Shown here one piece after another: positions 34,020-34,626 of a stretch of DNA of 64,000 bases; within the stretch, counting starts at the first letter, position 1; each line of letters starts with the position of its first letter. This stretch comes from Patescibacteria group bacterium. Its GTDB lineage: Bacteria; Patescibacteriota; Patescibacteriia; UBA10025; JAHIVO01. The DNA lies in assembly GCA_041660605.1 (NCBI GenBank), contig JBAZWB010000001.1, forward strand, positions 462,879 through 526,878, read 5' to 3'. A model generated the notes under the pieces. It did no database searches and had not been told where the DNA came from. It saw only the letters and a list, made by a program, of their open reading frames with translations. The translations under genes and the position numbers were made by a program.

Positions 34020-34626
34020 ATGACTCAAAGAAGGGTTTACCAAAATGAATATCTTTATTTTATAACCTGGCGGACGCGGGAGGGGTATCAATTTTTTGAG
34101 AATAAAAAAAATGCTGAGTCGTTAATGCGAGATATTTTTATTTCCGCCAAAATAAAGGAATTCATCATTTTTGCCTATCAAATCATGCCCGATCCCGCCA
34201 GCCTCGGTTTAGCCGTAGGCTATGGCGGGCGGGCATGTGCATATTTTGGCAATGCACCGCGCCTTATTATCCCACCGCACCTTAGAGAAGGTGCGGTGGG
34301 GGGATTGGAATGACATTTGCGAAGATAAAAAATGTATAAAATTAAAACATCCCGAGCGCACGCTCTCTAGCGTGCGCTCCGATTACGCGAAGAAATATAC
34401 CATTTCCGATTTAATGCAATCAATAAAGGGCAATTTTTTCCGACGATTGCATGCAGGAAATAAATGGCAACCTAGGTTTTACACTCGCATGATAACCACT
34501 GAAAAATATTTAAATACTGTCATTGATTATATCCACCAAAATCCTATTAAGGCTGAATTACCGATTAAGTTCAAACATAAACCATATCAATTTATTAATT
34601 GGCGGGATATATATGGATTATTATGA
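34020..34626 (+). pseudogene. IS200/RAYT-like Y1 (HUH) transposase interrupted by a 40-nt insertion
   Basis: Frame 1 ends ...FAYQIMPD and frame 2 resumes HVHILA... (HUH motif), with the catalytic Tyr region YIHQNPIKAEL downstream. The two ORF-track pieces (34020..34313, 34222..34626) form one gene. Confidence 0.65.
34194..34233. repeat. REP-like palindromic insertion inside the RAYT gene
   Basis: CCCGCCAGCCTCGGTTTAGCCGTAGGCTATGGCGGGCGGG. Arms CCCGCCA(TA)GCCT / AGGCTATGGCGGG, the same arm family as the tRNA-Thr(TGT) flanks. 40 nt, so it frameshifts. Confidence 0.55.

Follow-up and report, generated by a model that had tools for sequence, protein, structure and literature searches.

The interrupted RayT-like gene

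A transposase-like gene interrupted by a short palindrome was analyzed in a 64-kb stretch of DNA, hereafter the window, from the genome (~0.95 Mb) of an uncultured Patescibacteria bacterium. The gene resembles those of the REP-associated tyrosine transposases (RAYTs; REP, repetitive extragenic palindromic sequence) and is called RayT-like here. It occupies window positions 34020–34626 on the plus strand and consists of three parts. The 5′ segment (34020–34193), identified by homologue alignment and Pfam/NCBIfam matches, covers codons 1–58 (MTQRRVYQ...AYQIMPD). The 3′ segment (34234–34626) covers codons 59–188 and the stop codon, and it carries the histidine–hydrophobic residue–histidine (HUH) motif as HVH and the catalytic tyrosine in D-Y157-IHQNP. 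Between the codons for D58 and H59 lies a 40-nt imperfect GC-rich palindrome (34194–34233).

The plus strand at 34176–34250 reads ..TAT CAA ATC ATG CCC GAT, CCCGCCAGCCTCGGTTTAGCCGTAGGCTATGGCGGGCGGG, CAT GTG CAT ATT TTG.., and removal of the 40 nt at 34194–34233 (13 codons plus one nucleotide) yielded a single 188-aa open reading frame (ORF) with ..AYQIMPDHVHILAM.. (MPDHVHIL) at the junction. The insert boundary is ambiguous by 1 nt, because a C is shared at the junction. As present, ORF1 (34020–34313, 97 aa) comprises the N-terminal 58 residues and a 39-residue out-of-frame tail, and ORF2 (34222–34626, 134 aa), likewise on the plus strand, begins at an ATG supplied by the insert (M-A-G-G-HVHIL...). 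The +1 frameshift caused by the insertion cuts the first 58 residues off from the catalytic tyrosine and the histidines of the HUH motif.

The closest homologue was P0001 (67% amino acid identity), encoded by gene L081 of a Patescibacteria metagenome-assembled genome (MAG). In the full-length DNA alignment, a clean 40-nt gap was found at the insertion point, and no other indel separated the two genes before codon 100. The insert is not surrounded by a target-site duplication (flanks CCCGAT| and |CATGTG). A preliminary description, made from the DNA letters alone, had proposed a RAYT/IS200-like HUH gene split exactly at its HUH motif by a 40-nt palindrome. The break between D58 and H59 confirmed the position, the exact-deletion ORF and the 40-nt gap confirmed the cause, and the Pfam Y1_Tnp match and catalytic residues agreed with the gene assignment.

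The rebuilt 188-aa protein matched Pfam Y1_Tnp with 32.5 bits (cut-off of 23). Its score against the NCBIfam equivalog REP_Tyr_transpos ('REP-associated tyrosine transposase') was 77.1 bits (cut-off of 80), and this match was split in two by a hairpin-coded loop. The family profile aligned with both halves of E. coli TnpA_REP (PDB 4ER8), the 3′ segment corresponding to residues 77–143 and the Y-I-x-x-N-P helix (D-Y157-IHQNP) to the same helix of 4ER8; the next-closest structures were those of ISDra2-type TnpA (2XM3 and others). H59, H61, Y157, and N161 were invariant in the family alignment, with HVH formed by codons 59–61 of the rebuilt ORF. The N-terminus MTQRR(I/V)YQ, the IMPD turn, the Y-I-x-x-N-P helix, and the HUH motif are common to about 87 Patescibacteria proteins of 170–210 aa. 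When ORF1 was used as the query of an exhaustive HMMER search, just 47 representatives at 50% clustering were obtained, and the RayT family is thus small. In family members, the HUH strand is separated from the following helix by 45–60 extra residues, which are absent from 4ER8. In the AlphaFold (AF2) model of P0001, the predicted local distance difference test (pLDDT) score was >90 in the core and 42–62 for residues 67–120, which lacked secondary structure; the window insertion point corresponded to a tight surface turn between two strands.

Further RayT copies and REP instances, which the preliminary description had suggested counting, were sought in the window: there was no second RayT copy, and the 40-mer was single-copy. 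No paralogue on the 0.90–0.96 Mb contigs of this genome was found among the family-search matches, which would fit the single copy per genome of domesticated RAYTs. Two diverged RayT-like copies were observed on one 312,413-nt contig (L004 and L094) and in one MAG (L007 and L008), and the family is therefore not strictly single-copy.

The insert was folded together with its flanks. The full hairpin spans 54 nt (34184–34237, plus strand; CATGCCCG-AT, the insert ending in CGGG, and CATG). Bulges of TAT and of a single T make the palindrome imperfect. Its pairing goes on beyond the insert as CATGCCCG/CGGGCATG, where CGGG, the 3′-terminal four bases of the insert, is matched by CCCG from the codons for Pro and Asp, and the CATG tetramers on either side pair with each other. 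Folding energies were −24.6 kcal/mol as DNA (z of −5.6) and −39.8 kcal/mol as RNA (z of −4.6), and none of 200 shuffled sequences folded as well. Read directly from the sequence, the uninterrupted target would be a mini stem-loop, CATG-CCCGAT-CATG, and the insertion lies at the junction of its loop and 3′ stem.

It is very improbable that the locus is a split gene of which both halves are translated, ORF2 from the insert ATG (MAGG-HVHIL...), and reassemble to an active enzyme. The insert does supply an ATG that is in frame with the HUH motif and lies four codons ahead of it, and the break falls in a surface turn. However, this ATG has no Shine-Dalgarno sequence at a workable distance and is buried inside the −39.8 kcal/mol hairpin, ORF2 was called as a gene by no gene finder in any collection examined, and ORF1 would bear a 39-residue nonsense tail. 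We know of no precedent for a split Y1 transposase.

The interrupted allele was compared across assemblies. A region of 6.5 kb including the insert was 100% identical in an ENA assembly (960-kb contig, MEGAHIT-style) and a Logan assembly, and the insert was identical in L088, L089, and L170. The 97-aa interrupted ORF was recorded in two NCBI MAG entries (MFA6098321.1 and MFA6495724.1, WCV50_01220), JGI/IMG, and Logan, while the intact 188-aa protein had no record in the collections searched; the interrupted allele is thus the only one recorded for this genome. As the same allele recurs across assemblies and no intact allele accompanies it, assembly error is unlikely as the source of the insert. 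An assembly or sequencing artefact would be conceivable in that chimeric reads can produce palindromes and the assemblies may derive from related samples; given the identical 6.5 kb, the protein records, and the presence of the same hairpin class elsewhere in the genome, we consider this explanation extremely improbable.

Apart from the insert, the window gene showed no defect. It deviated at 4 of 47 conserved columns, and the family median was ~3. The absence of a further defect in 188 codons indicates that the event is recent or that the gene is still under some constraint. The window gene appears to be a loss-of-function pseudogene, and the otherwise unbroken 188 codons suggest that the insertion was fairly recent.

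Decay was common in other family members as well. The gene on a complete Kerfeldbacteria chromosome (L005:4001-4560) had a TAA stop and a change of HUH to YIH. L011 carried a TGA in the loop of a 14-bp perfect palindrome in the variable region (L011:4199-4230), and L100 (after MQS) and P0063 were frameshifted. P0073/L087 had a TGA stop and a frameshift near hairpin 1, described below (L087:2965-3140); it had been considered a gene split at the HUH motif and was rejected, as it is broken elsewhere. P0054 and P0067, which start at MPEHVH, were also rejected as HUH-split genes: L085 is intact with a late start call, and L086 ends at the contig end.

No other member had an insertion at the window site among ~130 proteins and ~30 loci, with L173 as one possible exception. 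In L173:340-618/P0092 (ENA ERZ27248148 k141_3768074), a possible second case from the HMMER search with ORF1, the family sequence continues through ..FAYQIM and is followed by at least 110 nt of unrelated AT-rich DNA. The departure point is 6 nt upstream of the window insertion point, and the contig is only 618 nt long.

These comparisons bear on whether the interruption is programmed or reversible; a programmed or regulatory interruption had been the second proposal of the preliminary description. An active RayT would then be produced only occasionally, either through precise removal of the hairpin from DNA by a Y1/HUH enzyme, comparable to the seamless excision of IS200/IS605-type elements from single-stranded DNA, or through its bypass in expression by ribosome hopping or a +1 frameshift at GGC-GGG-CGG-G. 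Several features fit: the ORF is intact on both sides with conserved residues kept, the insert lies in a tight turn rather than within a strand (P0001 AF2 model), the hairpin is very stable and takes in its flanks, the absence of a target duplication is expected of seamlessly excising HUH-type elements, and the interrupted allele seems fixed in several assemblies. Against it, the intact allele is absent from the records, no other member with an insertion at the site was found apart from the possible case of L173, and no family RayT on the same contig that could act in trans was found among the family-search matches.

The individual routes were also disfavored. Bypass would require a matched codon pair, and none was present (take-off candidates GAT and CCC versus GGG CGG G|CAT); there is no stop after take-off. 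For a +1 frameshift, a TAG at 34216–34218 in the target frame leaves just 34219–34233 (15 nt), where GGG-CGG-G is the sole candidate, and CGG is the second most used arginine codon (10.6 per 1000) and not hungry. In bulge-helix-bulge introns, the splice sites lie in two 3-nt bulges, one per strand, that are each located 5′ of a central helix of 4 bp. The predicted fold here has one 2-nt bulge on the 5′ strand only, and the junction stagger is the mirror image. Excision by slippage was not favored, as the junction microhomology is just 1 nt and there is no flanking direct repeat. Rfam searches (gathering thresholds over the whole window; E-value over 33900–34700) returned only tRNAs and noise, with no match for the insert. 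In the absence of matched codons, a rare CGG codon, a bulge-helix-bulge, and a direct repeat, the proposal found no support, and we consider a programmed interruption quite unlikely.

GC-rich hairpin doublets inside the RayT reading frame

The 3′ segment of the window gene contains two perfect hairpins on the plus strand, both in frame with that segment. Hairpin 1 (34271–34300) has a 13-bp stem and the loop AGAG and encodes ..HRTLEKVRW..; its DNA was more conserved relative to L081 than the remainder of the gene. Hairpin 2 (34354–34379) has an 11-bp stem and the loop CTCT, is inverted relative to hairpin 1, and encodes ERTLSSVRS. The DNA for the extra loop in the family consists of two, sometimes three, such GC-rich hairpins of the form (G/C)AGCGC-A/G-S-S-C, loop, G-S-S-T/C-GCGCT(C/G). 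Nearly every family member has an inverted GAGCGC-type doublet in the disordered loop that directly follows the HUH strand.

The stems of the doublets co-varied (ACC/GGT, ACG/CGT, AGG/CCT, GGG/CCC, and AAC/GTT), and the loops occurred as inverted pairs, namely AGAG/CTCT in the window gene, ACAGCG/CGCTGT in L006 and L099, CGCAGAGA/TCTCTGCG in L008, and GTCTCT/ACAGAG in L093 and at 16964/17006 in the window. The in-gene doublets thus have the arrangement of REPINs, in which two related inverted hairpins are separated by a short spacer. The hairpin DNA motif was read in three frames across members (RTLEKVR; AHPAVGA/APTAGCG; RAQASLPAL), and the conserved item is therefore the nucleic-acid hairpin rather than the peptide. 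Perfect GC-rich hairpins with a stem of at least 8 bp numbered 19 in ~4 kb of these regions and 8 in ~121 kb of flanks, a ~70-fold enrichment within the genes.

Outside the ORFs, GAGCGC-type copies were sparse (~1 per 30–60 kb). Single copies were found in the flanks of L006, L009, and L096, and L096 has two GAGCGC-type hairpins just 3′ of its own RayT stop codon. In the 100 nt upstream and 70 nt downstream of the window RayT gene, no GC-rich hairpins were found. The window contains an intergenic GAGCGC-type doublet (16964–16989, loop GTCTCT; 17006–17027, loop ACAGAG) followed by a CCCGCC..GGCGGG hairpin (17073–17098), all within 16964–17098 on the plus strand. The 26-mer GAGCGCAGGCGTCTCTGCCTGCGCTC at 16964 is identical to L093:1581-1606, which lies inside a RayT ORF, and is the reverse complement of L009:3288-3313 in a flank; a search of viral contigs for this 26-mer gave 0 matches. 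The in-gene GAGCGC hairpins, and not the 40-nt insert, are those specifically tied to the RayT family. In a literature search, no report of RAYTs from Patescibacteria or of REPs located within a RAYT ORF was found, which is not proof of novelty.

The CCCGCC..GGCGGG hairpin class and its insertion sites

The 40-nt insert differs from the GAGCGC-type inverted doublets that co-occur with the RayT family, and it was compared with REPs. It has their size, being an imperfect palindrome of 20–40 nt. Many near-identical copies were not present in the window, where just the 12-nt arm recurs, and the location is not extragenic, as the insert lies inside a coding sequence. One end of a REP carries a conserved tag, GTAG or CGTC (PMC3733652). 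The insert lacks such a terminal tag, its sole GTAG (34215–34218) being internal in the right arm. An exact or near-exact search for the 40-mer core gave 0 matches in JGI metagenome contigs and viral contigs. Thus, the insert is not a classical REP. The preliminary description had taken it for a REP copy that hit the transposase presumably spreading it; the insertion of a palindrome held, whereas its spreading by this RayT is no more than possible.

The arms of the insert relate it to another set of hairpins. The window has 8 loci at which CCCGCC..GGCGGG occurs in hairpin orientation within 110 nt, whereas Markov simulations of the window gave an expectation of 0.39 pairs (~20-fold over-representation). 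Five of the 8 loci are in the tRNA cluster (4.2–5.8 kb), and the others are at 8035, at 17073, and in the insert. The earlier assignment of the arms to a CCCGCC/GGCGGG family that flanks the tRNAs and recurs near 8036 was therefore correct. On its trailer side, the helix CCCGCCATAGC/GCTATGGCGGG enclosing tRNA-Thr(tgt) (5651–5745, plus strand) is identical to the 12-mer right arm GGCTATGGCGGG of the insert, and its leader side has 1 mismatch to this arm; at up to 1 mismatch, the 12-mer had 3 matches in the window versus 0.22 expected. This shared arm makes the insert a relative of the tRNA-cluster hairpins.

For three insertions of the CCCGCC-type class, the boundaries could be set by comparison with an uninterrupted sequence. 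The first is the 40-nt insert of the window RayT gene. The second is a 30-nt in-frame insert (CTGCCCGCCGCATGGCTTCGGCAGGCGGGA, peptide LPAAWLRQAG) in the RayT-family member L004/P0022, which sits in the loop of in-gene hairpin 1 and shares with the window insert the architecture CCYGCC-N-GCCK..MGGC-N-GGCGGG. The third, again from the window, is a 53-nt double hairpin (CCCGCC..GGCGGG and ATGCCGCC..GGCGGCAT; 5004–5056, plus strand) that interrupts a truncated copy of tRNA-Tyr within its anticodon loop (CTGT^AAA). All three lie in loops of pre-existing stem-loops and lack a target-site duplication. Insertion by single-strand HUH/Y1 chemistry, as in IS200/IS605 elements, leaves no such duplication, whereas a DDE-type miniature inverted-repeat transposable element (MITE) would duplicate its target. 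The target-site duplication flanking inverted repeats that marks DDE-type MITEs was not found at the 40-nt insert. The tetranucleotide CGAY| precedes the 40-nt insert, the L004 insert, and the hairpin at 8033 (3 of 9 hairpins, not significant); it was rejected as a target motif, being too weak and not present before the other six CCCGCC hairpins. With the in-gene doublets included, palindromes have repeatedly landed or been held in genes of the RayT family.

We consider it probable that a small hairpin element inserted fairly recently into the stem-loop tip at the HUH codons and inactivated the RayT-like gene. A short GC-rich element of the genome's CCCGCC...GGCGGG-clamped class would have entered the gene, and its landing site would have been the tip of a small stem-loop formed by chance by the HUH codons (CATG-CCCGAT^CATG). 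Because no target was duplicated and the delimited insertions all fell in loops, insertion may have occurred on single-stranded DNA by HUH-type cut-and-join, with this RayT or a relative as a possible catalyst.

The palindrome may instead have inactivated the gene through template switching or gene conversion on a quasi-palindrome, by which the tRNA-Thr(tgt) leader/trailer helix or a similar sequence was copied into the CATG..CATG stem-loop. The identity of the 12-nt arm to that helix would be explained directly, the CGGG at the 3′ end of the insert extends the pairing with the CCCG of the left flank, as such events tend to do, and the exact 40-mer is single-copy (window; JGI metagenome search). 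No donor for the inner 16 nt (CTCGGTTTAGCCGTAG) is present in the window, and the two other insertions of the same architecture in unrelated contexts and genomes are more easily explained by a mobile class; we therefore regard this origin as improbable.

Several points weigh against recent insertion of a mobile hairpin as the cause of inactivation. An insert derived from the tRNA-Thr helix would not be a transposition product, the exact 40-mer is known in one copy, and its mobility is deduced from relatives. The 40-mer copy count and the Y1 transposase search cover 64 kb of the ~0.95-Mb genome, the assemblies carrying the insert may share reads or samples, and an otherwise perfectly intact ORF would also fit a gene still in use.

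A broader and rather doubtful possibility is that the RayT family and the hairpins form a self-contained system. The cognate REPIN-like doublet would be kept inside the ORF and translated as a disordered loop irrespective of frame, perhaps as an autoregulatory cis binding site or a protected master copy, and CCCGCC-clamped hairpins would be moved by the same HUH chemistry into stem-loop tips, including those of tRNA genes and of the HUH codons of the enzyme itself. In such a system, the 40-nt insert would act as a self-inflicted and possibly excisable off-switch.

Comparison with known elements and minor features

RAYT/TnpA_REP proteins have been described with REPs, bacterial interspersed mosaic elements (BIMEs), and REPINs (E. 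coli TnpA_REP, PDB 4ER8; Nunvar 2010; Bertels & Rainey 2011, PMC3116915; Quentin 2018, PMC6006769). The window family resembles them in its Y1 HUH fold with HUH and Y-x-x-N-P motifs, and its GC-rich hairpins occur as inverted doublets, as in REPINs. Unlike in the RAYT/REP systems, the doublet lies inside the ORF, in the 45–60-residue low-confidence loop absent from 4ER8, rather than on either side of the gene; copies outside the ORFs are sparse, no GTAG/CGTC tag was seen, and the window gene is broken. The absence of a target-site duplication is shared with IS200/IS605 elements (IS608 and ISDra2), in which hairpins are the recognized structures. In contrast to these, the inserted element is 40 nt long with a single hairpin and no gene, and a target tetranucleotide is not established.

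Rickettsia palindromic elements (RPEs) of 100–150 bp are said to have been found by Ogata et al. in 2000, in frame in many different protein-coding genes. Similarly, the GAGCGC doublets and the 30-nt L004/P0022 insert are palindromes within ORFs that give rise to a surface insertion in the protein. They differ from RPEs in their length (20–40 nt) and in being concentrated, as far as seen, in one gene family, and the 40-nt copy in the window is out of frame. Mitochondrial GC clusters and Magnusiomyces 'byps' are short GC-rich palindromes of 27–55 nt in coding sequence (PMC4478555). The insert likewise is a GC-rich palindrome interrupting a coding sequence in a lower-GC genome; unlike in byps and T4 gene 60, matched take-off and landing codons are absent, and no read-through evidence was found. 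The byps of Magnusiomyces mitochondria were reportedly described by Lang et al. in 2014. Cyanobacterial very small dispersed repeats or mini-MITEs are reported, by Elhai et al. in 2008 (cited in PMC3116915), to be hairpins of 20–40 nt nested in hairpins and structured RNAs. The hairpins here share this size and nesting; they differ from those repeats in phylum, sequence, and apparently low copy number, and the link to a Y1 transposase is circumstantial.

By itself, the split gene is an ordinary outcome, in which a transposase-derived gene is knocked out by a small palindrome. The in-ORF REPIN-like doublet and the stem-loop-tip insertion pattern are more noteworthy, and neither was found described in the literature search. 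The doublet, conserved as DNA and read in three frames, offers a natural test of selection on nucleic-acid structure versus peptide. The three independent landings in stem-loop tips without target duplication yield a concrete target rule, open to testing, for HUH-type insertion on single strands in an uncultured, tiny-genome phylum. Should the RayT be dead, the genome's hairpins would be orphaned, and REP dynamics could be compared with and without the enzyme.

Directly 5′ of the ATG of the window RayT gene, a hairpin CTTCCC(C)..GGGAAG is followed by a T-run (33990–34019, plus strand). A hairpin and T-run precede the RayT start in most family members, with differing stems (CCTTCCC..GGGAAGG and GACGGGA..TCCCGTC). 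The left end of IS200 has similar terminator stem-loops and stem-loops that occlude the ribosome-binding site.

The tRNA cluster (4190–5830) is a mosaic. Long GC helices enclose tRNA-Thr(ggt) (about 4396–4405/4478–4487) and tRNA-Thr(tgt) (5651–5661/5735–5745), and an 'empty' version of the tRNA-Thr(ggt) helix, with flanks matching on both sides, is at 4204–4224. Partial tRNA copies occur after each gene of the cluster, and a tRNA-Tyr-like 3′ part (5500–5635) contains a GCCGCC hairpin and a 45-nt insert in its variable arm. A small GIY-YIG-like ORF (..KSYKGGEAFKRLIKK*; ~5100–5312) lies between the truncated and full tRNA-Tyr genes. Its 3′ end, a ~110-nt structured region, and the 5′ half of tRNA-Tyr are repeated two to three times (4745, 4888, and 5314), which looks as if a homing-type element had duplicated its own target.

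In a distant Parcubacteria MAG (L012:2400-2560), the same two neighboring hairpins, GCCGCC..GGCGGC-AT followed by CCCGCC TCTAT GGCGGG, are located just upstream of tRNA-Ile and preceded by tRNA-like fragments; the association of such hairpins with tRNAs is thus not confined to the window genome.

Two copies (72% alike) of a 100–135-nt structured element with no Rfam match were found at 16577–16712 and 17259–17362. Each begins at the TGA ending a truncated ORF, and the second comes after a duplicated 5′ end (17173–17262 versus 17413-) of the recX-like gene that starts at 17413. Downstream of greA, a GC-rich and hairpin-rich intergenic stretch (35200–35460) contains CCTCAGCCATAGGCTGAGG at 35278–35296; its spurious translation includes ..FDYAQGRL.., which we take to be a string known from spurious metagenome ORFs over repeats.

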